A DNA stretch of 64,000 nt from Pristiophorus japonicus. Taxonomy: Eukaryota. The stretch is taken from NCBI RefSeq assembly GCF_044704955.1, contig NC_091999.1, forward strand, positions 66,278,001 through 66,342,000. The letters are read 5' to 3'. Below are positions 26,066 to 64,000 of this stretch, one piece after another (the stretch's first letter is position 1; the number at the start of each line of letters is the position of its first letter). Below the pieces are notes generated by a model. That model worked only from the letters and a program-made list of their open reading frames with translations, was not told the DNA's origin and searched no databases. A program made the position numbers and the translations under genes.

Positions 26066-26069
26066 GCAT

Positions 26070-29266: not shown

Positions 29267-31749
29267 TCCGTGAGTGCCTCTGCCTCGTGACTTCCAGATG
29301 TTCCCTGCGGAATAGCTGACACTTTTGTATAGACGTATTGGAAACCCCAGTGTCGGAATGACATCCCAGGAAAAATAAGAGAACTCGTCCCTGATATGAA
29401 ACGGATCGGTGTAAGATTCGGCTCAGGCCCTGAACTTCAGACACGGTGAGCTGAATGCCAGCCTTTTAAAAGACAAGCTGTGATATGTTCAAGCTTCGGC
29501 TCAGTGGGATCACTCTCGGTCTTTGACTCAGAATGTTACAGGTACTAAACCACACTCCAGAGACCTGAGCCCATAATTTAAACCGACAAGCCTGGTGCCA
29601 GTACTGTAGGCATGCTGCACTGTCAGAGTTGCCGTTTTTCAGGGTACACAAGAAACTGATGCCCCGTTTTCCCACTCAGTTATATTTAAAGGACTCGTGG
29701 CACTATCTTAAAGAGCAAAGGACTGCTCCAGGGTTCCCAGCGGAAAACTTTATCCGCCAAACAACATCTGAAAAATAGATTATTTGATCATTACTTTATT
29801 GCTATTTGTGGGATCTTGCCTTGTACTATTGACTGCAACATTTCCTACGTTACAACCGCGACCACACTTCCGAAATAAATAATTGGCTTTAAAACACTTT
29901 AGGACAACATGAGGTCATGAAAGGTGCTATATAAGTGCAAGTGTTTCTAAATGTCAACATTTGAAAATACAAGTTGCGATATGTGAAAATCTCATATATT
30001 ACTGTGATTATCCCACACTCCTCTGCTCACTGGTTTAACGTATTAAGTTTCAAAGGATTACATATCCCACGAAATGGCGATCCAGTGGAATAGCAGCCTG
30101 TTCAGAGATGTTCCACTGAGTTTGGCAGCAGAACTTTCAGAACGGAATTATTCATTTTAAAATTTATTCCCTTTGATATAAAACACATCTGTTCGAATTG
30201 AACAAAACTGAAGCCAAAGTCACTGTTCGAGATATGTATATGTGTGTGTACCAACTGTGAATATTCTTAAAATAAACCATTGTTGTGAGTTGAAACGAAT
30301 CAATAAGTGAGTCTGTTTATCTGAGTTTGCTGCCATGAACATTTCATGGGAACCAGTGAGAAGTTTCTGTAAATAAACACAGAAATAGCAGTTTCAGATT
30401 AGAGCATTGAGCGACAGAAACACAATAAATGTTTCCCCACAAACACAGCACAGAAATAAAGATAGGGAGAAATGCAAATCTCTCAACAGATTCCAGCAAC
30501 AATTGTTCTTTGATACATTTCTCTAAATTATAGGAGGGTAAAGTAAAGATGATCCCCACGGACAGAATGGGGAAAGATTCTAGTTATTGTATATCGTGAC
30601 ATCACAAATGTGACAATGGAGATTTCCTGTATCCTCCCCCTCTCCTATTTCCACTTTCCGTCTTGTCTCTCAGGAATGCATAATTGGCCTTCCCCCAACT
30701 AGATGCCAATATCTAACAAACGTTTTCATTGGTCCGGAATGATATGCCTCGAAACATATTGATTGGAGTGCGCAGAGGAACCTTGAATCCAAAATGTGAC
30801 ATGTGCATTTAATGATCTGGGAGTTTTTGATGGGACAATGTAGAGGGAACTTTAAACTGTATCTAAACCGTGCTGTACCAGCCCTGGGCGTGTTTGATGG
30901 GACTGTGTAGACACTGCTTTACTCTGCATCTAACCCGTGCTGTACCTGCCCTGGGAATGTTTGATGGGACAGTGTAGATGGAGCATTACTCTGCATCTGA
31001 CACATGCTGTACCTGCCCTGTGAGTTGCATAATTTAGTGCAGTAATTACCAAGACAGGTCTAGTTTATTTTAACATGAAAGAATGGGGCTAGTGTAATAT
31101 TAAGAGTGTCTTTGTATAATTTCCTACAAACAGAGACAGGGTCTTCAGTAATAGGAACAAAGGCATGGCATACTCCAGTAATATCTGAGACAGGGCCTCG
31201 TATAATATTAGTATTTCTAGTGCAGTAATATCTGAGGTAGTGGTTTGTGCAATAATTACTGATACTGGGATACTTTTTATTGGTTCCTGGCATGCGGCTG
31301 TGGCTGTCGCTGGCAAGGCCAACATTGATCGTCTATCCCTAATTGGCCTTGAAAAGCATTTGGTGAGCTGCCACCTTGAACTGCAGCTCCCGTGTGGTGA
31401 AGGTACTCCCATACTTTTAGGGAGGGTGTTCCACGAATTTGACCCAGCGGTTATGAAGAATCGGGAATAACTTTCCAAGTTAAGATGGTGTGTGATTTGG
31501 AGTGTTATGTGGAGTTGATGGTGCTCCCATAAGCCTGCAGCCCTTGTCCTTCTAGGTGGAAGATGTCATAGGTTTGGAAAGTGCTGTCGAAGAAATCTTG
31601 GCGAGATGCTGCAATGCATCTAGAACTCACTGCAGACATAGTGCGCCGGTGGTGGAGGTAGTGAATATTTAACGTGGTGGATGGGGTGATATAAACAGGA
31701 ATAGGGTCGAGTGTAGAAATAAATGAGACAGGTTCTGGTGTATTATACA

Positions 31750-32915
31750 ATCATACACTGGTTACAGCACAGAAGAGCGCAGTTTGGCCCATATATCCCG
31801 TGCCGATCTCTGCAAGAATATTTCAGCTAGTCCACTCCCCCGCCCATTCCCGTAGACCTGTGAATTTTCTTGTTGAGGTTCTTATACAGTTCGCTTTGTA
31901 ATGTCATGATTGACTCTGCCTCCACCATCCTTTCAAGCAGTGCATTCCAGATCCTAACCACGAGCTGTGTAAAAACGTTTTCTTCATGTCACCTTTGGTT
32001 CTTCTGTCAATCACCATAAATCTGTGTCCTCTGTTCCCGAACCATACTGGAATTGGAAAGGTTTCTCTCCAGCTAATCTGTCTAGACGACTTATGATTCT
32101 GATCACCGCTCTCAAATCTGATTTTAACCTTCTCTGCTCAAAGGAGAACAATCCCAGCTTCTCCAGTCTGTCCACAAAAGTGAAGTACCTTAGCCCTGGA
32201 ACAACACATAAAACTTTTCTGCCCCGACTCGAAGGCCTTCACATCCTTCCTAAAGTTTGGTGCCCAGAATTGGAAACAATACTCCAGTTGAGGCCTAACC
32301 TGTGTTTCATACAGATTCATCATAATTTGCTTGCTTTTGTATTCTATGCTTCTATTTATGAAGCCCAGGATCCCGTATGCTTTTTAAACCACTTTCTCAA
32401 CCTGTCCTTCCAACTTCGAGAATGCATGCAAACATACCTCCAGGTCAATCTGTTCATCACACCCTTTACAATTGTACCCTTTCGTTTATTTTGCTCCACG
32501 TTCTTCCTACAAAAATGTATCACTTCAAAATGTTCTCCGTTTCATTTGCCACGTGCCCACCAATTCCGCCAGCATATCTATGTCCTATTGCAGTCAGCAC
32601 TATCCTCCTCACTGTTCACTCTGCTTCCAAGCTTTGGATGATATGAAAATTTTGAAATCGTTCCGAGTACAACAAAATCTACGTAATGAATATAAATCAA
32701 GATAAGCAGAGTTCCTATTCCCAACCGCTGCGGAACACCACTGTGTACCTTCGTACAGTCCAAATAAAAACACTACTCTCTGATTCCTGTCACTCAGCCA
32801 ATTTTATATCCATGCAACCACTGTCCTTTTTATTTTTTGGGCTTCAACTTTGCTGGCAAGGATATTATGAAGACACTTTATCCAACGCTTTTTGGAAGTG
32901 GAACACATCAACCAT
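31750..32915 (-). mobile_element. CR1 3' fragment
   Basis: VRPQLEYCFQFWAPNFRKDVKA; HSGVPQRLG; paralogous to ~23005-23880. Confidence 0.85.
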
Positions 32916-33904
32916 ATAAGCTGAGACTGTGTAAAGTGCATTAAAAACTGAGACTGGGTCTGGTGTAATGAGAGAAACAATCAGTCAGACAATAACAGAT
33001 TTATTAACCTCATGCCAGGTACAGGAGCATTTTAATTTTTTCATCACTTACACTAATCATCCACAGTGGAGGTAAATCTCAGGACCTTCCATGTGACGGT
33101 GAGGTGATCACTCGACAATTAAGCGCAGAGACCGGTGGGGGGCTGCTCATTATACTCGGTGGGTTTTAATCCCCTTTCCCACTGAACACAGCGACAGACA
33201 TGGTCACCTTGGTAACGGAATGGTCAGTGTGCCATCACTTTCTAAACAAGAGCATACAGGACAATGGGTGATCAATAAATGTTAAAGTTATTAAACGACA
33301 TGAATTGCATTTTGAATAAAATAAAATGCTGAAAAGTAATGGTTGAAGCTAATCATTTATCTTTGTGGAATACACAGATAATCAATTATGTGTTTTGTAG
33401 ACTCACACGCACACATACACACACACATATAGCAAAAACTTTGGGTGTGCTCTTTTCAGTTGTTAATATTAACCAGATGAGAGTATTTTTTCAGGAGGAT
33501 ATTAGGACCACGAGGCCGCTCAACCGGCAGTTCTGTGAGGTGACGGTTCCAGGCTCTGTCTGACATAATCAGTGGGTCACGTGACAGCTAACGAGCAAAT
33601 AGTGCAGGAAAAACAATCCTTAACATTAAAGAACTCGGAGGAATTGGACAAAACACGTGCGAATTAGTAAACTTTAACACACAGAGTGCCACGAAGTAGT
33701 GCAAAGTGCAGTGCACGATTCCTTACCTTCAGTCGTGTCCCTTAATCCCAGTCCATCTCTTGGAGATTGTTACAAAATTCACCACATCCTCTCAACACAT
33801 AGATGAACGAAACAATACCAGATCAAGCAGAAATTGCACACATCACTTGATAGCTGTTAAAAAAACTAAACATATACTTCAAACCAAAAAAGTATTGAAT
33901 CCTC

Positions 33905-34700
33905 ACAGGGCTAGTATAATATAACATAGACAGGGTATGTGCAATATAAAGAGAGAAAAGGTATCGTGTAATATAAGCATGGACAGAGCCGAATGGAATG
34001 TAAGCAGCGGCAGGGTCTAGTGCCATATAAAAATAGACATGGACGAGTGTAACATAAAGAGAGACAGGCCTAACATAACATAAACAGGGACAGGGTCTCG
34101 TGTAAACTAAACTGAGACACGGTCTACTGTAATATAAACTGAGACAGGCTGAATTGTATTATAAACTGAGACAGGGTCTAGTGTAATGTAAACAGAGGCA
34201 CGGTCTAGTGTAATATAAACAGCGACAGGGCCTAGTGTAATATAAACTGAGACAGAGTCGCGCGGAATATAAACAGTGACAGTGTCTAGTGCAATATAAA
34301 CAGATACAGCGTCTAGTGTAATATAAACAGGGACAGGATCGAGTTAAATATAATCTGAGGCAGGGTCCAGTGTAATATAAACAGAGTTGTGATGCAGTGT
34401 AATATAAACAGATACAGGGCCTAGTTTAATATAAACAAAGACAGGGCCTCGTATAATATAAACAGCGACAGGGTCTAGTGTAATATAAACAGAGACATGT
34501 CTTCGTGTAGTAGAAACAGAAACTGGGGCTAGGGTAATATAAATACAGACAGTGTCTAGTGTAATATAAACAGAGAGAATGTCGAGTTTATTATAAACAG
34601 AGATGGCCGAGCGTAATAAAATCAGGAACAAGGTATAGTGTAATCTAAACAGAGACAGGACCTCGTGTAATATAAACAAATACACCGTATAACGTAATAA
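33905..34700 (+). repeat. 27-bp minisatellite array
   Basis: Tandem gtgtaatataaacagagacagggtcta units. Confidence 0.95.
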
Positions 34701-34704
34701 CAAT

Positions 34705-36140
34705 AAGAACAGAAGAACAAAAGAACTCGGGACAGAAGTTGGCCGCCTGTCCCCTGAAGCCTGCTCTGCCATCTAATAAGATCGTGGCTGACCTGATAAT
34801 GGACTCAGCCCCACTTCCCTGTCAGCACCCCATAACCCTTTATTCACATATCGCTCAAACATCGGTCTATCTCCGCCTTCAATATATTCAATGACCTCGC
34901 TTCCACAGCTCTGCGTAGCAGCGAATACCATCGATGGACAGCCCTCTGAGAGGAGAAATTCTTCCTCATCTCTGGTTAAATGGGCGGCCCGTTATTTTGA
35001 GACTATGTCCCCTCGTTTTATTTTCTCCTATGAGTGGAAATCTCCTCTCTGCTTCCACCTTGTCGAGCATCCACATTACCTTAAAAGTTTCAATAATTCA
35101 ACTCTGATTCTTCTGAACTCAATTGTGTATCGGCCCAACATACTCAACCTATCTTCATAAGTTAATCCCCTCATCTCCGGAATCAACCTAGTGAACGTTC
35201 TCTGAACAACGTCCAATGCAAATACATCCTTCCTTAAATACAGAGATCAAAACTGCCTGCACTACTCTAGATGTGGCCTCACGAAGACCCTGTACAGTTG
35301 TAGCAGGACTTCTCTGCCATTATATTCTATCCCCTTGCAATAAAGGTCAACATACCATTTGCGTTCCTGGTTATCTGCTGTAAATGCACGCTAACTTTTT
35401 GTGTTTCATGCACAAGGACACTCAGGTCCCTCTGTACTGCAGCACTTGGCAATTTTTCTACATTTATATTATAATTTGCTTTTCTATTTTTTCTGCCAAA
35501 GTGGGTAAACTCACATTTTCCCACGTTATATTCCATCTGCCAAATTTTTGACCACTCACTTAGCCTGGCTATATCGCTTTGCAGATGTATTGTGTTCTAC
35601 TCATAGATTGCTTTCACACCCATCTTTTTACCATCAGCAAATGTGCCTATATTACACTCAGTATCTTCATCCCCGTCATTAATATAGAATGTAAATAGTG
35701 TAGGCTGCAGCACGATCCCTGCGGCACCACACGACACAGTTTGCCAACCGGAAAATTACCCATTATCCCGGTTCTCTGTTTTCTGTTATTTAACCAATAA
35801 TCTATCCATGCTAATAAATCACCCCCAACCCTCTGAACATTTATCTTGTGCAGTAACCTTTTTTATAGCAGCTAATCGATTGCCTTCTGGAAATACAAAT
35901 ACACCACATTCACTTGTTCTACTTCATCCACCCTGCTCGTTACAACCTTAAAGAAATCCATCAAATTTGTCAAACATTATTTCCCTTTCTTAAAACCATG
36001 CTGACTCTTGTTGATTAAATTATACTTTTCCAAATGCCCATTACAGCTTCCTTAATAATGGACTCCAGCATTTTCCCAACGACAGATGTTAGCTAATTTG
36101 GTCTATAAGTTACTGCTTTTGTCCACGTCCTTTTTTAGAT
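34705..36140 (-). mobile_element. CR1 3' ~1.4 kb
   Basis: MEYNVGKCE..HFGRKN, QRDL.VLVHETQKVS; CR1 3' UTR. Confidence 0.9.
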
Positions 36141-37545
36141 GGGGACAGGATCTAGTATAATATAAACAGTGATATCGTCTAGTATGAATTAAACAGTGAC
36201 AACGTCTAGTGTAAGATAAACAGAAACAGGTTGTAGTTTAATATAAAGAGAGACAGGGTCTGTGTAATATAAACATGGGCAGGGTCTAGTGTAATATAAA
36301 CAGATACAAGGGATATTATAATATATAACAAAAGACAGGGTCTTGCGCAGTAATAATTAAGACAAGGCACTATTTTATATAAGCAGAGATCCTGTTAAAT
36401 GCAATGTAAAGAGAAATATGATTTAGCAGAATTGTAACTTAGTCAGGGCCTAAAGACCTTTAAACAGAGACAGGGACTAAGTTAATATAAACAGAGACAG
36501 ATTCGAGTGTAATATCAACAGGGACATGGTCCAGTGTACTGTAAACAGAGACAGGGCCTAATGTAAAATAAACAGAGACAGGGTGTAATGCAATATAAGC
36601 AGAGACAGGGTCTAGTGTAAGATAAACAGAGCCAGGGTCGAGTTTAATACAAACAGAGGCAGGGTCTGGTGTAAAATAAACCGAGAGAGGATCGAGTTTA
36701 ATATAACAGAGATATGGTCTCGTGAAATAAAAACACGGACAGTATCGAGTGTATTATAAACAGAGACATGGTCTGTTGTAATATAAACGGAGACACAGTC
36801 TAGTGTAATAAAAACAGAGACAGGGGCTAGTTTATTTTAAACAGAGACACGGACCAGTGTAATAAAAACAGAGAGAGGGTCGAGTGTAATATACACAGAG
36901 AGAGCTTGTGGTATAATGTAAACCGAGACAGGATCTCTTGTAATATAAACAGAGACATGGTCTTGTGTAATATAAACAGAGGCAGGGTGTAAAGTAATAT
37001 AAAAATAGACATGGTCTAGTTTAATATAAACAGAGACAGGGTCTAGTGTAATATGAACAGAGACAGGATCTCGTGAAATTTAAACAGAGATCGGTTGTAG
37101 TGCAATATAAACAGAAAAGTCTTGTGTAATATATAAATAAAACCGGGTCTAGTGCAGTAATAACTGAGACAGGGCGCAGTGTAATATAAACAGAGACACG
37201 GTTGAATGTAATATAAAGAGAAACATGATTTGGCACAATGGTAACTGAGTTCGGGCCTAGACCCTCAAAACAAATAAAAGTTCTATATAACGTAAACAGA
37301 GACTGGACTAGTGCAGTCATAACTGAGACAGGGTTTAATATAATAAAAAGAGAAACAGGGTCTCATCTAATATAAACAAAGACAGAGTCTACTGCAGAAA
37401 ATACTGCGACCGCGTCTAATATAATATCAACGAAGTCAGGACACTGTGCAATAATAACTGAGACAGGTCTTAATACAATCAAAACAAAGACAGTGCCTCG
37501 TGTCATATAAAATGAGACATAGTCTTGTGCAGTAATAGCTGTGCC
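36141..37545 (+). repeat. 27-bp minisatellite array
   Basis: About 50 degenerate units. Confidence 0.95.
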
Positions 37546-37596
37546 CTCTGGATAATGGCCCTCATGTCAGTGTAAACATTTTCATAGAATCGTCAG

Positions 37597-39035
37597 AACA
37601 TAAGAACATAAGAAATAGGAGCAGGTGCAGGCCAGCTGGCCCTACGAGCCTGCTGGACCATTTAACGACATCATTGCTGATCTGATCATGGACAGAGCTC
37701 GACTTCCCCGCCCGCTCCCCATAACCGTTCATTCGTTTATCGCTCATAAATCTGCCTATCTCCACCTTAAATACATTCAATGACACGCCCTCCACAGCTC
37801 TCTGGGACAGCAAATTCCGCAGATTTACAGTCCTCGGAGAGAAGAAATTCCTCCTCATCTCAGTTTTAAATGGGCAGACACCTTATTCTCAGACGATGTC
37901 CCCAAGTTTTATTTTCCCCGATGAGTGCAAATATCCTCTCTGCATCCACCTTGTCGAGTCCCACATTACCTTTTACATTTCGATAAGATCCCCTCTCATT
38001 GTACTTAACTCCAATATGTATAGACCCAACCTACTCAACCTATCTTAGTAAGTCATCCCCCTCATGTCCGAAATCAGCTAAGTGAACCTTCACTGAGCAA
38101 CCTCCAATGCACGTATATCCTTCCTGAAATACGGAGACCAAAACTGTACGCAGTACACCAGGTGTGGCCTCACCAATACCCTGTACAGTTGTAGCAGGCC
38201 ACCTTTGCTTTTATACTTTATCCCCCTTGCACTAAAGCCCAGAATATCATTTGCCTTCCTGATTACTTGCAGTACCTGCATACTAACTTTTTGTGTTTCA
38301 TGCACAAGGACATACAGATCTCGCTGACCTGCAGCACTTAGCAATTTTTCTCCATTTAACTTAAAATTTGCTTTTCTACTTTTTTCTTCCAAAAGGGATA
38401 ACCTCACATTTTCTCTCATGAGACTCCATCTGCCGATTTTTTGCCCACTCACTTAGCCTGTCTATATCCCTTTGCAGATATTTTGTGTCCTCCTCAAAAT
38501 TTGTTTTCCCACCCATCTTTTTATTGTCAGCAACCTTGGCTATATTACACTCTGTCCCTTCTTCCGAGACATTAACATAGATTGTAAAATTTGAGGACAC
38601 AGCACCGATCCCTGCGGCACCACACTCGTCACTGTTATCCGACCGTAAAATGTCCCATTTATCCCAACTCTCTGATTTCTGTTCGTTAGCCAAGCCTCTA
38701 TCCATGCGAATACATTAGCCCCAACCCCACGAAATTTATCTTGTGCAGGAAACTTTTATGTGGCACCTAATCGTTTGCTTTCTTGAAATCCAAATATAAC
38801 ACATCCACTGGTTCTCCCTTATCCACCGTGATCGTTACATCCTCAATGAACACAAGCAAATTTGTCAAACATGAATTCCTTTTCATAAAACCATGCTGAC
38901 TTTGCTTGATTGAATTATGCGTTTCCAAATATCCTGCTACTACTTCCGTAATCATGGAGTCCAGCATTTTCCCAATGACAGATGTTAGGCTAACTTGTCT
39001 GTAGTTTCCTGCTTTTTGCCTGTTTCCTTTTTAAA
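37597..39035 (-). mobile_element. CR1 3' ~1.4 kb
   Basis: QHGFMKRNSCLTNLL...YLDFKKA; RPHLVYCVQFWSP; MRRNFFS; aacataagaacataaga tail. Confidence 0.92.
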
Positions 39036-39039
39036 ATCG

Positions 39040-40935
39040 GGACAGGATCTCGTGTAATATAAACAGAGATAGGGTCCAGGGTAATTTAAACTGTGACAAT
39101 GTCTTGTGTAATATAAAAATAAACAGGATCTAGTTTAATATAAATCGAGACAGGATCCAGTGCAATATAAACACAGACAGGATCTGGTATAAAATAAACA
39201 GAGACAGGGTCTAGTTTAATATATACCGCGACATGGTCTCGTTTAATATAACAGATACAGGGTATAGTGTAATATAAACAGAGACAGGGTCTACTGTAAT
39301 ATATAAAGAGATATGGAATAGGGTAATATAAACAGAGACATGGTCTAGTCGAATATAAATAAAGACAGGGTCTGCTGTAATATAAACAGAGATACGGTCT
39401 AATTTAATGTATACGGAGACATGGTATATTAATAGAGTTAGAGTCTAGTATATTATATACAGAGGCAGGGTCTAGTGCAGCATGAGCAGAGACAAGGTCT
39501 AGTGTAATACAAACATCGACAGGGTCGAGGGTAATATAAAGAGAGACAGGGTCTAATGAAATATAAACAAAAGAGGGTCCAGTGTAATATAAACAGAGAT
39601 ATGGTCTACTGTAATATAAACAGGGACAGGGTCTAGTGCAATTTAAATAGCGACAGGGTCCAATGTAACATAAACAGAGAAAGGGTCTAATGTAATATAA
39701 ACAGAGACAGTGTCGAGTGTAACGTAAACAGAGCGAGTGTATAATGTAATATAAACAGAGACAGGGTCCAGTGTAATATAAACAGAGACATGGTGTAGTG
39801 GAGTAACAATTGAGAAACAATCTGTTGGAATTTCACAGTGTCATAGACAATTACAGCTTAAAGGAAGCCCTTGGTTCCATCACGCCTCTGCCGACACTGA
39901 GTGAAAACAAATTCTGCTCCACTCTGCTCCAGATATTTTTCCAATGCTTTTAAATCTAGGACATCTGCTTAGTGGGAGCCGATACACTATAGCATAGAAT
40001 CTTAGAAATTGACAGCACGGAAGGAGGCATTTTCTGCCCTTTGTCTAGTGCCAGCCGACCAAGAGCTATCCTGCCTAATCCCACTTTCCCGTTCGTGTTT
40101 TGCAGCCTTTTGGTTACGACACGTTAACTGAACATTCAAGAATCTTTTAAATATGGTGAGGATTCCTGACTACCAATAATTCTTACAGTGCGATTCAGAC
40201 CCCCACCACCCTCTCGGTGAAGACAAGTCCCCTCATATCTCCTGTACATTAAAAAACTAGTTATCATATTAGGTCGATTATTATACTTCCCTGTTACAGG
40301 AGAACAGATCTAACTTTTGAAATCTCTAATTGAAGTCCCTCATCTCTGGTAACAACCTGTTAAACCTCTTCGGTACCCTTTATATCTTTATGGAAAGGTG
40401 CTGCCCAAAATTGTCCATAATATTCCATCTGAGATCCAAGGCCGAATATAAGCAGAGATAAGTTGTGATGCATTAATAACTGAGCCGCGTCTCGAGTGAT
40501 TTAAATAGAGACTGGGTCTAGTCATTGATAAACAGAGACAGGCTCTAGTGTAAAATAAAAAGAGACAGGTTCTAGTGTAATATAAACGGAGAATGGGGCG
40601 AGTATGACACAAACAACGACAGGGCCCAGTGTAATATAAATAGAGACAGGTTCTAGTGTAATATAAGCAGAAACAGGGTCCAGGGTATAATAAACAGAGA
40701 CAGAATCTAGTGTAATATAAACTAAGACAGGGTCTAGGGTAATATAAACAGCGAAAGGGTCCAGTGCAATATAAAGAGAGACAGGGTCTAGTGTTATATA
40801 AACAGAGACAGTGTCGAATGTAATGTAACCAATGACTGGATCTAGTCTAATATAAACAGAGACAGCGTCGAGTGTAATATAAATAGAGACAGGGTCAAGT
40901 GTAATCTCAGCAGAGACAGGATCTCGAGCAGTAAC
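39040..40935 (+). repeat. 27-bp minisatellite arrays (39040-39810 and 40450-40935) separated by CR1 3' debris
   Basis: Tandem 27-mers; the intervening 39830-40440 carries CR1 3' UTR-like sequence. Confidence 0.9.
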
Positions 40936-41059
40936 ACATTTTAAATATCTGGCTTGTGGTTACTGCACGTCCTACCAGTGGAAAAGATTTCTAACTATTT
41001 ACTCGATAAAAGCTCCTCATTATTTTGATCGCCACTATTAAATCGGCCTTAACATTCTC

Positions 41060-43145
41060 GGATCCATGGAGCACCGTCCCAGTTTCCAGCTGTTCTACTG
41101 ATGCACCTCATGAACATCCAGATGCGGAGTCGCTAAGATTTGATATGGAAATCCCACTTTACAACAGTGCCAGAATGTCATCCCAGGCAAGATCAGAGCA
41201 TTATCCCCGGGAATTAAACCGACTGTTTAAGACTCGTCTCAGGCACTGAACTTTGGACACTCTGAACTAAATGACAACATCTAAAAAATATAGCTGTGAC
41301 GTGCTAAAGCCCCGGTACAATGCGATCACTCTCGCCTCTGAGTGAGAAGGCTGTGGTTCACAACCCCTCTCCAGAGACTGAGCACATAAGCTTGGCTAGC
41401 ACTCCCGGTACCAGTACCGAAGGAGAAGGAGCGGGGGGGTGGGGGGTCTATATTGACGGTGGTCCAGTCTTTCGGATGAGATGTTACATCTGCTGAGTCT
41501 TCACTCACAGTTGGATGTAAGAGATTGAATGGCACTATTTTAAATAGCAGGGGAGTTCACCCCGAAGTCCATTACACATATTTATCCATTAACCAGCATC
41601 ACTAAACAATAGATTCTGTGGTTATTATCACATTATGTTTGTGGGAGCTTGCTTTGTGCAATTTGACTCCACATTTCCTACGTTACAAAAGTGACTACAA
41701 TTCAAACGTACTTCATAGTAAAGAGCTTTTGGACATTCTGAGGACTTGAAAGTCGTGGAAGTTGTTTCTAAATGTCAACATTTGAAATACACGTTGCAAT
41801 GGGTCACTGCTCTGGTCGCTGTTTTAACTTGTTTAGTTTAAATGGCTGGAATCTGATGCTAAATGGACATCCAGTGAATTACTGCTGTGTTCAGAGAGGT
41901 TCCATTGATTTTGGTAGCAGAATTTTCAAAATTGAATTTTTTATTTTAATATTTTCCCTTTGATATAAATCACATCTCTTCTAATTGAACAAATCAAAAA
42001 CCGATGTCACTGCTGGATATATTTCCATTTCTTTGTAGCAACTGTCAATATTCATAAAATAAACCTGTGCTGTGAGTTAAAACTAATCAGTAAATGACTT
42101 TGTGGATCTGCTTTTGCTGCCATGAACACTTCATGGAAACCAGTGAGGTGTTTATGTAAATAAACACAGAATTAGAAGTCCCAGATTAGAATAGTGAACG
42201 ACAGAAACACAATAAATGTTTCCTCATAAATACAGAATAGAAATAAACAGTGAGAGAGACGCTAATGTCTCAACGATTTTTGACGTCTCAATTGATGTTT
42301 GGGATATTTCTTTCAGTTATTGGTGAACAAATCGACGATGATATCCACGGTCAGAATGGGGAAAGATTCTAGTCACCGTATATAGTGTCAGCTCAAATGT
42401 ATTAGTGGCAATTCCTTGTATCCCCTCCCTATCTGCTTCTCTCTACTATACCCACCTTCTGCCTTGCCTCTAAAGAATGCCTCATTATCTTTACCTCACA
42501 ATAAGAAGTCAATGTCCAACAAACATTTTCCCTAAGGTCGATTTCAAGGCCTCAAAACAAATTGGTGGGTGTGCGGAGATGCAGCTTTATAATAAAATAT
42601 GTCGTGTGAACTCAATGATCTTGGATGTTTGATGGGACTCTGTAGAGGTAATTATACTCTGACTCGAAACCCGTGCTGTACCTGCCCTGCGAGTGTTTAA
42701 TGGGACGGTTTCGAGGGAGCTTTGCTCTGCATAGACCAGTGATGTACCTGCCCTGGGAAAGTTTGATGGGATGGTGTAGAGGGGACTTTACTCTATAGCT
42801 AACCCGTACTGTACTTGCCCTGGGAGTGTTTGCTGTGACAGTGTGGAGGGAGCTTTGCTCTGCATAGACCAGTGCTGTACCTGCCCTGGGAGAGTTTGAT
42901 GGGACGGTGTCGAGAAAGATTTACACTGTATCTAAACCGTGCTGTACCTGCCCTGGGAGTGTTTGATGTGACGGTGTAGAGGGGGCTTTAAACTGTAGCT
43001 AACCGGTGCTATACCTGCCCTGGGAGTATTGGATGTGACATTGTAGAGGGAGCTTTACTGTTTCGCGAAACGTGCTGTACCGGAGCTGGGAGTGTTTGAT
43101 GGGACAGCATCGAGGGAGCTTTTCTCTGCATTGACCCGCGCTGTG
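41060..43145 (-). pseudogene. Copy 3 (partial, most diverged) of the triplicated unit
   Basis: Blocks ~42550-42349, ~42312-42260, 42052-41819 and 41246-~41060 with the same SINE and 66-mer array; the upstream three blocks were not found. Confidence 0.45.
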
Positions 43146-43399
43146 GAATGGCACAGTGTGACATCACTATGCCAGAAAAATGTTATTATCAGTGCAACTT
43201 CCTGTATATTGCATTTCGTTTTTACCTGTTTGACATCTTCACGTCAGCAACACGTAAACAATGGGTGACGTTATTGTTCACAACAATGCAGCGTCATCAA
43301 CGTGACTTGGTCGCCATTGCTACATCAGTGCGACCTCTGACCCTCAGCCACACGGATTGCTCGATTTGACTATATAGACACTTCAAATACCCAGTGTCC

Positions 43400-44335
43400 A
43401 ATGCTGTAATAACCGAGACAGGTCCAAATGTAACATAGATAGAGTGAGCATATAGTGTAATATACACAATGACAGGGACTAGTGTAAAAGAAAAGACACA
43501 GCGTCTGGTGTAATATAAACAGAGACAGGGTCTAGAGTAATATAAACAGAGACAGTGTCTAGTGTAATTTAAACAGAGACAGGGTCTAGTGTAATATAAA
43601 CAGAGACAGGGTCTAGTGTAATATAAACAGAGACAGGGTCTAGTGTAATATAAACAGCGACAGTGTCTAGTGTAATATAGAAAATAAGAGTCCAGTGTAA
43701 TATAAACAGAAACATTGTCGAGTGTAATGTAAAAAATACATGGTCTAATATAATATCAACAGAGACAGGGTCTAGTGTAATATAAATAGAGACATGGTCG
43801 AGTGTAATATATATTGAGACAGGGTCTCGTTTAATATAAACAGAGACAGGACCAATCTATTATAAAGAGACAGGGGATAGTATAATATAAACACTGACAG
43901 GGTCCAACATAATATAACAAAGGATATTGTGCTCTAATAATAACTAATACATGATCTATTGTATTAAAAACATTGACATTTTCTAGTGCAATATAAACTG
44001 GGACAGTGTCTAGTATAACATAAAGAGAGACAGGGACTAGTGAAATATTAACAGATACATGGTGTACGCTAATATAAACAGAGACAGCGTCTCGTTCAGT
44101 AGTAACTGAGACAAGTTCTAATGTGTTATAACGGAGGGTCTAGTACTGTGATAACTGATATAGAGCCGAGCATAATATAAGCAGAGACAGGGTCTAGTGC
44201 AGTGTAACTGAGACAGTATCTACAGTAATAAAATAGATCCCAAGACGAGTGCAGTAATAACTGAGACAGGGCCATCTGCATTCCGAATAGAGAGATGGTC
44301 TAGTGCAGTTATAATTAAACAGGGTCCAGATTAAT
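43400..44335 (+). repeat. 27-bp minisatellite array, including near-perfect units at ~43510-43680
   Basis: Several exact gtgtaatataaacagagacagggtcta copies. Confidence 0.95.
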
Positions 44336-44404
44336 TTAAACTTGTAGAATGTCTAGAATAATTTGATAGCAACATTCCAGCCATGAAATCTTCATGTCTG
44401 TACG

Positions 44405-44510
44405 ATTGTCTATCTGTCTGTCTATCTGTCTGTCGTTCGTTCGGTCGGTCCGTCCGTCCGTCTGTCCGTCCGTCCTTCGATTCGTAATTCTATCCATCTA
44501 TCTGTACTTC
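44405..44510. repeat. Compound (TCTA/TCTG/TCCG)n microsatellite
   Basis: tctatctgtctgtc...gtccgtccgtccg. Confidence 0.85.
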
Positions 44511-44516
44511 TATCTT

Positions 44517-44905
44517 ATATTACACTAGACACTGTCTCTGTTTATATTAGTCTTGACCCTGTCTCTGTTTATATTACACTAGACCCTGTCTCGGTTTATA
44601 ATACACCAGATCCTGTCTCTGTTTATATTACTCTAGACCCTGTCTCTGTTTATATTACAATAGCCCCTGTCTCTGTTTATATTACACTAGCCCCTGTCTC
44701 TGTTTATATTACACTCGACACTGTCTCAGTTTATATTCTTCCAGCCACTATCCCTGTTTATATTGCATTACATCCTGTCTCTGTTTATGTTACACTGGAC
44801 CCTATCTCAGTTTATATTACACGAGACCCTGTTTCTTTTTATTATACGCCAGGCGCTGTCTCTGTTTATATTATCCTCGACACTGTCTCTCTTTATATTA
44901 CACCA
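44517..44905 (-). repeat. 27-bp minisatellite array in inverted orientation
   Basis: tagaccctgtctctgtttatattacac is the reverse complement of the 27-mer; about 14 units. Confidence 0.95.
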
Positions 44906-45689
44906 GATCAGCTTTCCTTTTCAAATATATATTGGTTTCCCGATTTGAAAGTTATAATTAAATCTGCTGCCATCACCCTTTCAGGCACTACATTCCAGTT
45001 TATTACAGCTCACTGCATAAAAAATCTTCTTATCTCCCGTCTGGATTTATTTTTTCATTCATCTTAATCTTTGTCCTCTGGTTACCGATAGACCTGCCGA
45101 TGGAATCCCCACCTTTCGATCAACTCAACGAAACCCCTTCACAATTAACATCTGTTAATTCTCCCCTAAGCATTCCCCGCAATAATAAGAATAATCACAT
45201 CCTCTCTCGTGTCCACATAACTAAACTCCCTCATGCCTTGCACCAATCTCCTCTGCATCCTCGACAAGCGCCCGACAATCATCCTTAAATGTGGATTGAA
45301 ATAAATGCAATATTTTTTTGCCCTTCAGATTATTTCTAAGGATACATGCTCCCTTCAAATTTAACTGACTGAGAAGCATTAATTATAGTGTTTTACTTGT
45401 TTTGACAATACAGACGGTGACTGAAATGCTCAGCAACATCCGTCTCCACATGACTCATGTGTCAAAATGATCACTGTCCCCACCTGTTGATAAACGACAT
45501 CTACTGCAATCCCGAGAGCTTACTTTAAACATGATTCATAATATCCACCACAATAACTTGCTTGAACGTTTACCCAGAGATTTTTTTTAGAACAATCCAC
45601 AAGAGGTGCAGATGATCAGGAAGTATCAAGGGCGGAATTAGCAAAATTATTGTTGCAAATTCACCTTCAGTTCATCATACAGAGCCGTC

Positions 45690-48959: not shown

Positions 48960-49454
48960 ATGAGGTCGGCGATTGCTCTTGGTCTGTTGCTGTCTTTACT
49001 TTCCCGTGAGTAGTTTTTATTGTCCAATTCTCTCATTGTTACTGTCTCAGTGACAGTCTCTCTCTGGAATTTTAGAGAGTCTGGAATCATTTCTCGAGGA
49101 TTAACCCTCGGGGTATTTTGACTAATTTTACAGGTGTCCTGTCGCATGTGGTGTTGACTCAGCCCGAGGCAAAGACCAGGATTCCCGCAAGGCTCCCTCA
49201 GACTAACCTCGAAAACCAGCGGGTTCGATCTTAGCGGCTATGGCATGAACTGGGTCCGCCAGGTTCCCGGACAGGGGCTGGAGTGTCTGGTTTACCACTA
49301 CACTCCATCGAGCAAGAATAACGTCCCAGAGATTGAGAGTCGATTTACTGCATCCAAAGACACTTCAAACAACATCTTCACGTTGGACGTGAAGAATATG
49401 AGGAGCGAAGGCACCCCCATCTATTACTGTGCAAGGGAGGACTAGGGAGTGGGT
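48960..49454 (+). pseudogene. IGHV: IgM-type VH pseudogene (leader 48960-49005; V exon 49134-~49438) fused to a D-like segment (~49439-49454)
   Basis: Leader MRSAIALGLLLSLLS|gtgag; [14 protein letters not shown](fs)[34 protein letters not shown]...[32 protein letters not shown], the classic shark IgM VH pattern. Lesions: frameshift ~49190, first Cys replaced by Ser, TAG at 49443-49445. Confidence 0.96.
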
Positions 49455-49492
49455 CATGGTGCAATACAGGGCGAGCTCTCCATACAAATACC
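49455..49492 (+). other. Recombination signal sequence, 22-bp spacer
   Basis: CATGGTG - caatacagggcgagctctccat (22 nt) - ACAAATACC. Confidence 0.85.
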
Positions 49493-49583
49493 CCAGACAG
49501 GGAGTTTACTCAAACCTGCGACCATTACCACGCCAGTAGCGTCGAAAGAACTGAGGCTTAAATTGAAATAGTTAGAAATAAGT

Positions 49584-49612
<29 letters not shown>
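49584..49612. repeat. (TA)n microsatellite
   Basis: Perfect tatatata run between the two RSSs. Confidence 0.95.
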
Positions 49613-49615
<3 letters not shown>

Positions 49616-49821
49616 AATGTATACAAATTTTCTTCTTTATTACTATTGATTGCCATGTTCAATATGCACAGATGCTTCACAAGTATTCCAATCATTTTTG
49701 TAAATATAATGAACGGTACAAAATTAAATATCTCGCTGAGTCACTCTTACGAGAGTCGGAATCGGGTTTTTAGAGCTGGCTGGAATTTAATCTCTGTATT
49801 TTACAGTTAACAGTCCGCCGG

Positions 49822-49849
49822 AGTCTTTGACACGACGTGACTCACTGTG
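49822..49849 (-). other. Recombination signal sequence, 12-bp spacer, in front of the (D)J segment
   Basis: agtctttga (6/9 to ggtttttgt) - cacgacgtgact (12 nt) - CACTGTG; no nonamer at 22/23 spacing. Confidence 0.75.
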
Positions 49850-49899
49850 TTACGCAATGGGCTACTGGGGACAAGGGACCATGGTGACGGTGACTGCAC
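49850..49899 (+). other. IGHJ: JH segment (probably with a pre-joined D remnant)
   Basis: YAMGYWGQGTMVTVTA followed by the donor |gtaag. Confidence 0.95.
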
Positions 49900-55680: not shown

Positions 55681-56419
55681 TTGAAACGGGCTATTTAACG
55701 AGAAACTTCCAATTAACCGGATTTTGGAATGGTATATTAATTGAGTGGCAGGGAGGAGGAAACTCAAGAGACATTCATTCAAGGATGGAATTGAGCTCAG
55801 ATCACAGTGCGCTGAACGACATCGCTCTCCCCCAAATGCTGAGAAAATAATGGAGAGATTCGACTCAATCGCGATTCATCTACAGCTTGAATCTTAGAAA
55901 CCAGACTATGGAAATGCTACCTGTAGAATTATGTGGTAGGCAAGTTTAGAGGGTTTTTTTGCTAACGTCCTAAGCAGGAATTCCGCTTTTACTTGGAAGA
56001 ACAGTCACTGTTGTTTTGTAGGGATACGCCGCAGGCAATGTGCACAGAGCAAATTTCCCCAATCTGCAATGAAATAAAGGACAAGAAATGGTGCTGATTA
56101 AGAAATAAATACAGGTCGAAATAGCAGGAACACGCCTCTGTTCTTCCATTGTATGATCCAATGAAGGATTCTTTATTGCCGAGTTGTGTAAAGGTTCTTG
56201 TTGTGTAATGTGATAGTGCTCGGGGATAGAAAGGTGTGTTCCTGATCAGGGCATCGATAGGTGCTTACGATAGAACTGACAGAAGCTCAAATGCCCGATT
56301 AGTCTTTGATGGAGAAATGGTGGAATTAGTTTATTCTGCAGTCAAATATCGAGTTGTTTATTTCTTGTATAAGGACTGATTACAGAGTCTAACTTGTTCA
56401 ATGGGCCATTCTTTCCCAG

Positions 56420-56717
56420 TAACACCGTCTGCCCCCACCCTCTACGCATTGCTCTCCTCCTTTGAACAACCCAGCACCGATGGCTCCATCATGTAGGGCT
56501 GTTTGGCGATGGACTACTCCCAGACATCAGCAGCCATTTCTGGAGGAACACAAAGAGCTGATCACCACTGCATTGAAGACCTACCAGTCATTGTTCTACA
56601 AGCAGGTTACCTACACCCTGAGCAGCCAGTTAACCATCACAGAGTCAGAGGTGGGGAGCAGCATAATCTATTGCGAGATTCGACGTGGTGGGTCGGTGTG
56701 GAACATCACAATATCAG
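56420..56717 (+). pseudogene. IGHM: IgM constant exon Cmu1 (pseudo)
   Basis: cccag|[32 protein letters not shown](fs)...[52 protein letters not shown]|gttag; stop at 56494-56496 plus frameshifts. Confidence 0.95.
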
Positions 56718-56794
56718 GTTAGTGATGTGGGATACAGGGCAAACTGCGATCAGGTGAGAAGTTATGTTCAACTTGGATAGAAACTTGGTTAGAC

Positions 56795-57167
56795 CACACT
56801 TAGAGTACTGTGCACAGTTCTGGTCTCCATATAATACTTAGAATACTGTGTGCAGTTCTAGTTTCCTTGTCACATTTAGAATATTGTTTAAATTCTGGTT
56901 TCCATCTCATACTTAGAATACTGTGTAAAGTTCTGGTCTCCATATCATACTTAGAATATTATGCACAGTTCCGGTCTCCATATCACAGTTAGAATGTGTG
57001 CACAGTTCTGTTCTCCATATCACACTTAGAATATTATTAAAGTTCTGGTTTCCATCTCATACATAGAATATGTTGTAAAGTTATGGTTTCCATACCATAC
57101 TTAGAATATTGTGCACAGTTCCAGTCTGCATGTTGCACTGAGTATACTATGCACAGTTTGATCTCTG
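56795..57167 (+). repeat. ~38-bp tandem repeat (~10 copies) derived from CR1 ORF2
   Basis: Unit cacacttagagtactgtgcacagttctggtctccatat corresponds to the CR1 HLEYCxQFWSP codons. Confidence 0.9.
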
Positions 57168-57283: not shown

Positions 57284-57600
57284 GTCCTGAACGGGACTTT
57301 GTTCCTCCAATTGTTCTCCTCATGCTAAGTTCCACTGAACAAATCACCAGCAGCAGATATGCAAGCGCCGTGTGTTCAATCACCGATTTCAGGCCAAAGT
57401 CACTGACCGTGAATTGGCTGAAGAGTGGACAACTCCTGGATTCGGGCTTTGTCGCCTCTCCCGTCTTTGAGGTGAGCAGAAACTGCTTGATGGCTAGTCG
57501 GCTGACAGTCCCCGCAGGGAATGGTTCAGCGGCTCGGTCTACACCTGCCAGGTCACTCATGAAGGGGTCACACAAAGCCGTAACTTCACCAGATCTCAGG
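57284..57600 (+). pseudogene. IGHM: IgM constant exon Cmu2 (pseudo)
   Basis: [53 protein letters not shown]...SRLTVPA(fs)[27 protein letters not shown]|gtatg; 1-nt frameshift ~57517. Confidence 0.95.
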
Positions 57601-59572: not shown

Positions 59573-59881
59573 TGGATGTCCCATGCAGCGATTCAAAAAT
59601 CACTCTTCGCCCCCCGTCACTGGAACAGGTCTTACTGGAGGCGATAGTGACCTCAACCTGCGTCATGTCTGACGCTCCTTATGGGCTTACCGTGTCCTGG
59701 ACTCGAGAATAGGAGGCTTTGAAATCAGAGATTGCCGGCCAACCCGGAGAGGATCCCAACAGCGTGATCAGCTACTTAATCATCTCGACACAAGACTGGC
59801 TGAGTGGGGATAAGTTCTACTGCGTGGTGAGCCATTAGGAAATGCCGACACCTATCAGAGATTTCATCCAAAAGGAAAAGG
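59573..59881 (+). pseudogene. IGHM: IgM constant exon Cmu3 (pseudo)
   Basis: cgcag|[100 protein letters not shown]|gtgag; two TAG stops. Confidence 0.96.
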
Positions 59882-60196
59882 GTGAGCGGGGAGATTGTTC
59901 CAAAAAGTGAGACACTACGACTATTTCCGATGCATGTGCAAGGGCCAGTTCATAATATAAAGTGTTTAATGGGCTACTCTGATCATTCAGTTTGGTAATT
60001 CCACCAACTTAGCATTCTGGGACCTGACATTATGCATTTAAGGGGAAACTGGTTAAGTCCATGAGAAAGAAAGGATGATAAGGGTATGTTATTCGGATGA
60101 GATGAAGTGGGCTAGGAGGAGGCTTGTGTGGATCATAAACACCGGCATAGACCAGTTGGCCAAATCTCCCTGTTCTGTGCATTAAATTCGATGTAA

Positions 60197-63100
60197 GTGA
60201 TTGGCTGGTGATTGGTGATTAGTATTTCTTTTTTCTCTTCGATAACAGTGAGTAAACTTGAGCATTGTTGTTGCTGATCTAAGGGTTGAGTCATGGCAGG
60301 ACAGCTCGGTCACGTGTTATGCTCCACCTGTACCATGTGGGAACTCAGGGACGACACCAGTGTTCATGACGACTAAGTGTGAAGGAAGTGTATCCGCCTC
60401 CAGCTCCTGATGGACCGCGATGCGTAATTAGAGCTGAGGGTGGATTCACTCTGGAGCATCTATGATGCTGAGATTAACGTGAGTAGCACGTGTAGCGAGT
60501 TGGTCGTACCGCAGGGAAACGGTCCACAGCCAGATAGGGAATGGAAGACCAGCAGGAAGAGCAGTGCATGTAAGGTAGTGCAGGGGTCCCCTGTGGTGAA
60601 ACCCCTGCAAAACCTATAAACTTCTTTGGGTACTGTTGGGGGGGATGAATCATCAGGGGAGGGCAGCAGCAGCCAAGTTCATGGCACCGTCGCTGGCTCT
60701 GTTGCACAGGAGGGCAGGAAAACGTGTGGGAGAGCGATAGTGATAGGTGATTCAATTGTAAGGGGAATAGATAGGAATTTCTGCGGCCGCAGCCGAGACT
60801 CCAGGATGGTATGTTGCCTCCCTGGTGCAAGGGTCAAGGATGTCTCGGAGAGGGTGCAGGACATTCTAAAAATGGAGGGAGAACATCCAGTTGTCGTGGT
60901 GCACATTGGTACCAACGACATAGGTAGATATATGGATGAGGTCCTACGAAAGATATTTAAGGAGCTCGGAGCTAAATTAAAAAGTAGGACCTCAAAAGTA
61001 GTAATCTCGTGATTGCTACAAGTGCCACGTGCTCGTCAGAGTAGGAATCGCAGGATAGTTCAGAAGAATACGTGGCTTGAGCAGTGGTGCAGCAGGGAGG
61101 GATTCAAATTCCTGGGGCATTGGAACTGGTTCTGGGGGAGGTGGGACCAGGATAAACCGGACGGACTGCACCTGGGCAGGACGGAGCCAATGTCCTTGGG
61201 GGAGTGTTTGTTAGTGCTGTTGGGGAGGAGTTAAACTAATATGGTAGGGGAATGGGAACCAATGCAGGGAGAACAAGGGAAACAAAAAGAGACAAAAGCA
61301 AAAGACAGAAAGGAGATGAGGAAAAGTGGAGGGCAGAGGAACCCAAGGCAAATAACAAAAAGGGCCACTGTACAGCAAAATTCTAAAAGGATAAAGGGTG
61401 TTAAAAAAACAAGCCTGAAGGCTTTGTGTCTTATTGCAAGGAGTATCCATAATATGCTGGATGAATTAACTGTGCAAATAGATGTTAACAAAAATTATGT
61501 GATTGGGATTACTTTGACGTGGCTCCAGGTTAATCAGGGCTGGGAACTCAACGTTCAGGGGTACTCAACATTCAGGAAGGATATAATAAAATGAAAAGGA
61601 GGTGGGGTATCATTGCTCGTTAAGGAGGAGATTAATGCAATAGTTAGGAACGACATTATGTTGGATGATGTGGAATCTATATGGGTAGAGCTGCAGAACA
61701 CGAAAGGGCAAAATACGTTAATGGGTGTTGTGTACAGATATCCAAAGAGTAGTAGTGATGTTGGGGAGGGCATCAAACAGGAAATTAGGGGTGCATGCAA
61801 TAAAGGTGCAGCTGTTACAATGGGTGAAACATAGAAACATAGAAACATAGAAAATAGGTGCAGGAGCAGGCCATTCAGCCCTTCTAGCCTGCACCGCCAT
61901 TCAATGAGTTCATGGCTGAACATGAAACTTCAGTACCCCCTACCTGCTTTCTCGCCATAACCCTTGATCCCCCGAGTAGTAAGGACTTCATCTAACTCCC
62001 TTTTGAATATATTTAGTGAATTGGCCTCAACTACTTTCTGTGGTAGAGAATTCCACAGGTTCACCACTCTCTGGGTGAAGAAGTTTCTCCTCATCTCGGT
62101 CCTAAATGGCTTACCCCTTATCCTCAGACTGTGACCCCTGGTTCTGGACTTCCCCAACATTGGGAACATTCTTTCTGCATCTAACCTGTCTAAACCCGTC
62201 AGAATTTTAAACGTTTCTATGAGGTCCCCTCTCATTCTTCTGAACTCCAGTGAATACAAGCCCAATTGATCCAATCTTTCTTGATAGGTCAGTCCCGCCA
62301 TCCCGGGAATCAGTCTGGTACTTTAATATGCACATAGATTGGGCTAACCAAACTGGAAGCAATACGGTGGAGGAGGTTTTCCTGGAGTGCATAAGGGATG
62401 GTTTTCTAGACCAATATGTCGAGGAACCAACTAGAGGGGAGGCCATCTTATACTGGGTGTTGTGTAATGAGAGAGGATTAATTAGCAATCTCGTTGTGCG
62501 AGGCCCCGTGAGGAAGAGTGACCATGATATGCTGGAATTCTGCATTAGGATGGAGAATGAAACAGTTAATTCAGAGACCATGGTCCCGAATTTAAAGAAG
62601 GGTACTTTGAAGGTATGAGGCGTGAATTGTCTAGGATAGATTGGCGAATGATACTTAAGGGTTTGACTGTGGATGGGCAATGGCAGACATTTAGAGACCG
62701 CATGGATCAACTACAACAATTGTACATTCCTGTCTGGCGTAAAAATAAAATAGGGAAGGTGCCTCAAACTTGGCTATCAAAGGAAATCAGGGATAGTATT
62801 AAAGCCAAGGAAGTGGCATGGAAATTGGCCAGAAATAGCAGCGAACCCGGGGACAGGGAGAAATTTAGAACTCAGCAGAAGAGGACAAATGCTTTGATTA
62901 ACGCAGGTAAAATGGAGTACGAGAAGAAGCTTGCAGGGAACATTAAGACGGATTGCAAAAGTTTCTATCGGTATGTAAAGAGAAAAATGTTAGAGGAAAG
63001 ACAAACGTAGGTCCCCTGCAGTCAGAATCAGGGGAAGTCATAACGGGGAACAAAGAAATGGCGGAACAATTGAAAAAGTACTTTGGTTCGGTATTCACGA

Positions 63101-64000
63101 AGGAGGACACAAACAACCTTCCGGATATAAAAGGAGTCAGAGGATCTCGTAATGAGGACGAACTGAGGGAAATCCTTATTAGTCGGGAAATTGTATTGGG
63201 GAAATTATGGGATTGAAGGCCGATAAATCCCCAGGGCCTGATGGACTGCATCCCAGAGGATTTAAGGAGGTAGCCTTTCAAATAGCGGATGCATTGACAG
63301 TCATTTTCCAACATTTCATTAATTCTGGATCAGTTCCTATGGAGTGGAGTGTAGCCAATGTAAACCCACTTTTTAAAAAAGAAGGGAGAGAGAAAACAGG
63401 GAATTATAGACCGGTCAGCCTGACATTGGTAGTGGGTAAAATGATGGAATCAATTATTAAGGATATCATAGCAGTGCATTTGGAAAGAGGTGACATGATA
63501 GGTCCAAGTCAGCATGGATTTGTAAACGGGAAATCATGCTTGACAAATCTTCTGGAAATTTTTGAGGATGTTTCCAGTAGAGTGGACAAGGGAGCACCAG
63601 TTGATGTGGTATATTTGGACTTTCAGAAGGCTTTCGACAAGATCCCACACAAGAGATTAATGTGCAAAGTTAAAGCACATGGGATTGGGGGAAGTTTGGT
63701 AACATAGATTGAGAACTGGTTGTCAGACAGGAAGCAAAGAGTAGGAGTAAATGGGGACTTTTCAGAATGGCAGGTAGTGACGAGTGGGGTGCAGCAAGGG
63801 CCCCAGCTGTCTACACTGTACATGAATGATTTAGACGAGGTGATTAAATGTAGTATCTATAAATGTGCGGATGACACTAAGTTGGGTGGCAGTGTGAGCT
63901 GTGAGGAGAGTGCTATGAGGCTCCAGAGCGACTTGGATAGGTTAGGTGAGTGGGCAAATGCATTGGCAGATGATGTATAATGTGGTTAAATGTGAGGTTA
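60197..64000 (+). mobile_element. Near full-length CR1 LINE (5' UTR, ORF1 from 60293, ORF2 APE plus RT; runs off the window)
   Basis: MAGQLGHVLCSTCTMWE; esterase-like IVIGDSIVRG...CLPGARVKD...VHIGTND; APE-like GITLTWL, MG/DFN, SDH; RT PGPDG, NYRPVSL, YLDFQKAFDK, ADDTK; several frameshifts. Confidence 0.97.
61828..62320 (-). mobile_element. Antisense CR1 3' fragment nested in the host CR1 endonuclease domain
   Basis: Near-identical to the 3' end of 10160-11607; the host reads atgggtga|ctttaat (MGDFN) across the insert. Confidence 0.95.

Follow-up and report, generated by a model that had tools for sequence, protein, structure and literature searches.

Germline-joined immunoglobulin genes of cartilaginous fishes

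The germline VD-DJ layout of immunoglobulin heavy-chain (IgH) genes is already known, the primary paper on the partly joined germline clusters of the little skate reportedly being that of Harding and colleagues from 1990. Among the sources available in part, germline VD-J and VD-DJ IgH genes are listed in one (PMC5192425), 'V D1-D2J' germline clusters in another (PMC2193153), and a third mentions VD-J and RAG in germ cells (PMC4279169). Shark light chains are documented, in sections of two reports (PMC2193156, PMC2193153), to have been joined in the germ line through site-specific recombination that involved trimming and P nucleotides; heavy-chain junctions had been hard to dissect, according to the sections of the former (PMC2193156).

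The gene considered here lies in a window, the whole stretch of 64,000 nucleotides of Pristiophorus japonicus DNA that was analysed, on contig C23 of a 5.9-Gb genome. It shares its layout and isotype with the partly joined IgH clusters of horned shark and little skate and, like them, occurs beside unjoined and fully joined clusters, but here a chromosome-scale census orders the events, with a dead family of 26 loci and an open family of 9. The nurse shark NS4 light chains, in the portions consulted, resemble this array in their several independent germline joins with trimming and added nucleotides (PMC2193156), and in that the joined genes are nested among split relatives on the tree (PMC2193156, PMC2193153); the NS4 joins are nevertheless complete VJ joins, whereas in the window gene, a heavy chain, a pair of signals with 22- and 12-nt spacers remains. 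The somatic VD-DJ rearrangements of nurse shark Group 2 IgM have the same structure, with two joins done and the D-D join left, and show that V-D1 and D2-J joining can precede D1-D2 joining (PMC2435157, in part). They are single-cell products, whereas the window gene is inherited, duplicated and decayed. Finally, the nurse shark IgM1gj gene is likewise a germline-joined IgM heavy chain, but as described in parts of two sources it is a complete VDJ join without Cmu2 and its expression is seen in neonates (PMC5192425, PMC4279169), whereas the window gene, partly joined and dead, does have Cmu2.

As a dead copy the window gene is ordinary; its interest lies in the array that it opens up, whose germline joins can be placed in sequence with the help of a tree. 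The literature searched, which did not extend to the primary papers from 1988-1990 or to most journals behind a subscription, yielded nothing on a D2J array spanning a whole clade, on heavy-chain joins arranged as an ordered series or on the immunoglobulin genes of this genus.

Organization of the window gene

The V, D elements and J of the window gene all lie within about 1.2 kb, on the forward strand. The leader exon (MRSAIALGLLLSLLS, 48960..49005) has its GT donor at 49006, and the VH exon (49134..49436) ends in YYCAR. As the initial annotation had noted, and as can be seen directly in the sequence, no V recombination signal follows. That annotation had placed here about 16 extra nucleotides ending in AGTGGGT; the ending stands, but the stretch is 18 nt long (49437-49454), 16 being the length of its D1 part (49439..49454, with an intact 5' end). 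The first two nucleotides (49437..49438) look non-templated and read AA in the other 25 copies of the family described below. An in-frame TAG in D1 (49443-49445) results from the loss of one nucleotide.

D1 is followed by its 3' signal (49455..49492, forward strand), with heptamer CATGGTG (49455-49461), a 22-nt spacer and the nonamer ACAAATACC (49484-49492), which has one mismatch. The D1-D2 intervening DNA that comes next (49493..49821), earlier put at about 330 bp, measures 329 bp; it carries a (TA)n tract at 49584-49623, and no D segment or further signal was found in it between the two signals. The D2 5' signal (49822..49849, reverse strand), with its nonamer (49822-49830), a 12-nt spacer as first described and its heptamer (49843-49849), directly abuts the D2J unit (49850..49899, forward strand). 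This unit consists of a D2 remnant of at most 2-4 nt and JH (YAMGYWGQGTMVTVT), with donor C|GT and the GT at 49900. Under thresholds for both signals that were chosen after inspection of the sequence, 5000 single-base shuffles of 49433-49870 never produced a signal of either kind close to its end with mismatch levels like those observed. A strict scan requiring CAC missed the 22-spacer heptamer, in which T replaces the third-position C. The first three bases of the heptamer are required for cleavage. Its consensus is CACAGTG (PMC2193153, in part).

The constant exons lie downstream, Cmu1 at a distance of about 6-7 kb, since it starts at 56419 and J ends at 49899; nurse shark IgM clusters have a J to Cmu1 spacing of 6.3-6.8 kb in the sections consulted (PMC2435157). 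All three exons found, on the forward strand, are damaged: Cmu1 (56419..56712) by a family-wide TAG at 56494-56496 and two private 1-nt deletions, Cmu2 (57286..57599) by a 1-nt deletion, and Cmu3 (59575..59877) by stops at 59710 and 59836. They match Triakis IgM at 46-63% (tblastn). An intact paralogue has four C exons, a mu-type tailpiece and TM; its fourth exon plus tail is 85% identical to Triakis IgM and matches mammalian mu in PDB. By these resemblances, the window gene is identified as an elasmobranch IgM heavy-chain cluster with Cmu-type constant exons. The 100-residue V of three loci recurs without a single difference in a public protein annotated to the sawshark Pristiophorus japonicus.

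Neither Cmu4 nor TM gave a match in the rest of the window or in the next 9.9 kb, which can be read as a secondary loss, relatives having both. The cluster stops after Cmu3 and is followed at 60190-61830 by some 1.6 kb with 89% similarity to the 5' flank of family-D clusters, in opposite orientation, which suggests an inversion or a deletion between clusters.

The retained interval

For the census, the genome was searched with the interval and two J patterns, which gave 78 V-J loci, all of which were classified. A separate V search of the genome, in which 40 of 83 candidates were scored, suggests that the census may be incomplete, and one unjoined cluster was found in addition to the 10 in the census. 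Those 10 loci, on contigs other than C23, have the order V-23 / 12-D1-22 / 12-D2-12 / 23-J, and thereby bear out, within the same genome, the unrearranged layout from which the initial annotation had started.

The 395 bp from heptamer to heptamer in the window match the D1-D2 interval of all 10 canonical clusters (blastn, best E 6e-32), identity being 75-79% towards D2 (146 nt) and 71-74% towards D1 (about 100 nt). Against the V-D1 and D2-J intervals of the same 10 clusters blastn gave no match (E >= 1.7), and global scores were 186-218 for D1-D2 as against -12.5 to 12 for the other two. An origin of the interval from V-D1 or D2-J is thus rejected, and the proposed D1-D2 identity has held. The DNA ahead of J in the window is accordingly the 5' flank of D2, not that of J. 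The canonical D2-J interval itself has 14 matches in the genome, none on C23 in a search that is weak for diverged copies.

What is missing from the window gene is equally specific. The V signal and the D1 5' signal are gone, V being fused to D1 at the coding ends; the 23-spacer signal of J and the D2-J interval, both present in unjoined clusters, are absent. The layout appears to be that of a germline VD-DJ gene, in which the 22- and 12-spacer signals face each other.

A shared V-D1 junction in a dead family

The V-D1 junction of the window gene is common to 26 loci (family A, L001-L026), 23 of them spread over about 43 Mb of C23 and 3 on small contigs. The latter may be alternate haplotypes; one of them is identical to a C23 copy. 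The V exons of family A are 90-96% alike (4-10% different). Three copies stand in tandem, about 140 kb apart. In a tree built from the flanks, leaving out junctions and intervals, family A comes out as a single clade (100/100), at the base of which the window copy branches off; the tree is midpoint-rooted and has only two deep clades. Because 26 diverged copies at separate places form one clade, the V-D1 junction is judged to be germline-inherited, all copies coming from one assembly and the DNA runs found representing one sample, maybe that of the assembly itself. The opposite view, that a somatic lymphocyte intermediate was captured in the assembly, might appeal to the unspecified tissue of the assembly and to the real somatic VD-DJ intermediates of nurse shark lymphocytes (PMC2435157, in part), but it is rejected, with practically no probability left to it, by these 26 diverged loci that share one junction and form one clade by their flanks, and by the ageing of the junction itself.

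Compared with unjoined relatives, V of family A is 3-4 nt shorter, the 5' end of D1 is kept, and two bases stand between them; D1 of the unjoined relatives starts with the same letters as the D part in the window. The V-D1 junction looks like a coding joint. The initial annotation held that the inherited junction carries a TAG. This is not so: the TAG occurs in 1 of the 26 copies, and the other 25, with TAC or TAT at this place, keep an open frame across the junction, as CARKDYGSG or close to it.

The lesions differ among copies. The CAT heptamer on the 22-spacer side is found in 2 of 26 copies, the 12-side heptamer is damaged in 10 others, and both are intact in 14. A TGA and a -1 frameshift in FR1 are common to the other 25 copies and absent from the window copy, the V of which has a private +1 frameshift in FR1 near 49188. 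The Cmu1 stop was present in all 20 copies checked from the family of 26, 15 of them by pattern and position (an exact occurrence of the pattern whose coordinates place it about 6.6 kb downstream of a J of family A) and 5 of 5 by fetched sequence. Since the stop is in every copy checked, family A would have been dead before it multiplied, so that the largest family of the array (26 of the 65 clade loci) would already have been a pseudogene at its expansion.

The suggestion that the window gene is one RAG step from completion does not survive these data: its heptamer begins with CAT, V and Cmu1-3 are broken, and no Cmu4 or TM was found. That the gene had decayed is borne out by the lesions in V and Cmu1-3, including the Cmu1 stop. 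Its Cmu1-3 changes comprise 14 silent and 43 replacement changes (pN/pS 0.93), as expected of a copy that evolves neutrally. With V and C frames that are not open and a 22-spacer signal whose heptamer does not start with CAC, the window gene is judged to be a pseudogene that yields no antibody, and is very unlikely to serve as a RAG substrate at that signal.

The array and the order of the joins

The clade of the window gene comprises 65 of the 78 loci: 26 of family A, 9 of family B (see below), 9 V-D1-D2J, 17 V-DDJ (7 + 9 + 1) and 4 VDJ. A free D2 or a 23-signal J was found at none of the 65. All 44 loci that keep the D1-D2 interval carry a 12-signal on J, the other 21 being uninformative. 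With 44 of 44 informative loci alike, the D2-J join would precede the spread of the clade, and it is most simply taken as an old, clade-wide event that is not special to the window gene. The initial annotation is thereby amended: the VD-DJ layout and the D1-D2 signal pair stand, but the V-D1 and D2-J joins were not made together, D2-J being older. The possibility it raised that normal JH segments of this species carry a 12-spacer signal does not apply to the genome at large, where canonical J has a 23-nt spacer, though it does describe the window's clade.

V-D1 joining appears to be later than D2-J joining and, since family B has a different junction and forms a separate clade, to have occurred at least twice. 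At least 12 distinct junction types are found in the genome, counting two V-DD-J and one V-DDJ of the other clade (germline D1-D2 and D-J joins at L052, L069 and L070, in the canonical clade). In all of them the breakpoints lie no more than a few bases from the borders of signals, and the signals removed form 12/23-compatible pairs.

The D2-J joint itself leaves little to compare. Only 0-4 nt can be assigned to D2, by comparison with the distant clade; J is flush with the heptamer, with zero D2 letters, in 12 of 44 loci and preceded by two extra letters in 32. In a tree of 20 of the loci, the flush type does not form one clade, a pattern that a single clean D2-J event would not explain. It may stem from small losses that happened repeatedly, from conversion or from D2-J joins made separately.

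Other joined loci accompany these families. Two germline V-DDJ families (L040, L041, L044, L049-L051, L054 and L053, L055-L062) differ in their D1-J junctions, and one of them shows what look like P and N bases. V is open in 15 of their 16 loci, and the C exons are open in 2 of 3 checked, the third being flagged with a Cmu1 stop. Four germline VDJ loci (L063, L064, L066, L072) have three different junctions, with V and J in frame.

Proposed origin and alternative explanations

The homology of every part, the copy numbers, the order of the lesions and the tree are direct observations, and the window gene is, with good probability, a decayed shark IgM cluster in which RAG made two joins in the germ line, each in a step of its own. 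In an old, clade-wide first step, presumably a single event, RAG acting in germ cells would have joined D2 to J, so that the 12-signal 3' of D2, the 23-signal of J and the interval between D2 and J were lost; almost no D2 letters would have been left, and J would have come to lie behind the D2 5' 12-signal (V-23 / 12-D1-22 / 12-D2J). Later, in one cluster, V would have been joined to D1, with V trimmed by 3-4 nt, D1 untrimmed and 2 extra nucleotides, giving VD1-22 / 12-D2J with an open frame. The gene so formed would then, presumably in this order, have gained the Cmu1 stop and reached about 23 sites of one chromosome through duplication of the whole cluster. The copy in the window would have split off first and separately gained its TAG, CAT heptamer, frameshifts and loss of the 3' end.

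The strongest competitor, though an unlikely one, concerns the first step only. After cuts at the D2 5' 12-signal and the J 23-signal, RAG would have fused the former to the J coding end in a germline hybrid joint, so that the gene would be VD-J(12), a true single-D system. The J after the heptamer is indeed full length, with zero extra letters in those 12 loci and two in those 32, and the canonical D2 of 13 nt is otherwise absent; a signal-swapping germline case has been described once, in horned shark, in the part of PMC2193153 consulted. Canonical D2, however, starts with GTAC and J with AC, so that a coding joint at the shared AC would yield the TTAC/TAAC start observed here, and this start also occurs in two basal fully joined genes. 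These letters could be P or N additions instead, in which case a coding and a hybrid joint would both fit.

Loss of the V-D1 and D2-J intervals by ordinary deletion, through microhomology repair or unequal crossing-over and without RAG, is considerably less probable. The V-D1 junction of family B does fall on a 4-nt overlap of the V end and the D1 start, and the array does undergo duplications and a 3' rearrangement. Against this, the at least 12 junction types would all have had to break near signal borders and remove 12/23-compatible pairs, and the family A junction has 2 added nucleotides and no overlap.

Slightly less probable again is that the clade never had a D2, V-23 / 12-D-22 / 12-J being original and the two-D clusters derived, a view that draws on the lack of a free D2 in the 65 clade loci and on the midpoint rooting of a tree with only two deep clades, but is opposed by the D2 5' flank, rather than a J flank, before J, and by the two D segments of the IgM layout described for shark and skate in sections of PMC2435157 and PMC2193153.

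Two-step germline joining, the preferred reading, can be extended to the whole array, although this wider proposal is tentative and on balance doubtful. One old germline RAG event would have turned the largest IgM array (about 60 clusters on one chromosome) from a two-D into a one-D system with a 12-signal J, and later germline joins would have made live heavy chains with a single join left (7 open VD-DJ and open V-DDJ genes), recently amplified and under purifying selection. The signal arrangement V-23 / 12-D-22 / 12-J is that of TCR beta. If the proposal is true, the array records RAG activity in germ cells step by step and with dates, its live heavy-chain genes need only one somatic join, like light chains, and nature offers in it a test of whether heavy-chain genes that are partly joined go on to completion and expression.

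Open VD-DJ genes of family B

The second VD-DJ family, family B (L030-L038; L079-L080 and L088-L099), has 9 loci, 7 of them on C23, with V exons at least 99.4% alike. It forms a separate clade (100/100) that adjoins the V-D1-D2J clusters. V, leader, splice sites and both heptamers are intact in 9 of 9 loci, one extra nonamer change being present in 2, and Cmu1-4, tailpiece and TM1 are open in all 7 copies on C23. On the branch leading to family B the C exons underwent 6 silent and 5 replacement changes (pN/pS 0.24, one-sided p 0.02, uncorrected); this branch spans time before the join, so that this ratio covers pre-join changes too. These intact VD-DJ genes on the window's chromosome may finish assembly in one step. 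The 7 open copies have a family-specific V and junction, and thus bear on whether partly joined heavy-chain clusters are used.

Expression was sought in several ways. No RNA data set was listed as containing the open family. One open copy was compared with four runs, the kind being given for only one of them (DNA, maybe from the assembly's sample); no V-D-J or splice joint on this copy was found among the joints listed for their contigs, to which 322 further ones can be added. Searches of proteins with the family B V gave no expressed sequence with its junction among 5 and 9 matches, and one protein match is a gene model, not a rearranged transcript. In horned shark, expression of germline-joined heavy chains was not detected, as far as the consulted portion of PMC2193156 goes, and this counts against a function of family B. 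A 396-nt contig of run X5 covers the V exon of the open copy from its first base to the V end with 6 differences, 66 letters before and 28 after V being unaligned and the match stopping short of the D1 part present in the germline gene. Among the 40 scored of 83 candidates in the genome, the V closest to the open one is 93% like it. As a lead, this contig would have the shape of a spliced, rearranged transcript.

Further features of the array and the window

Constant-region sets also occur at L108/L124, L109/L125 and L110, and the roughly 29 kb upstream of them contain neither V nor J; the two on C23 have small Cmu1 deletions. Three Cmu1 matches outside the census were considered as unjoined members and rejected, because V and J were likewise lacking over that distance. 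The only canonical V-D1-D2-J cluster whose C exons were checked (L085-L086) has gaps in Cmu3 and TM relative to open family B.

Within the window, a 38-bp array lies at 56793-57165, between Cmu1 and Cmu2, and several arrays of a 27-bp and a 67-bp unit occupy 25643-44907. LINE-like fragments occur at 10131-11500 and 62210-63704, with frames that we take, from their likeness, to be reverse transcriptases resembling those of LINE elements.
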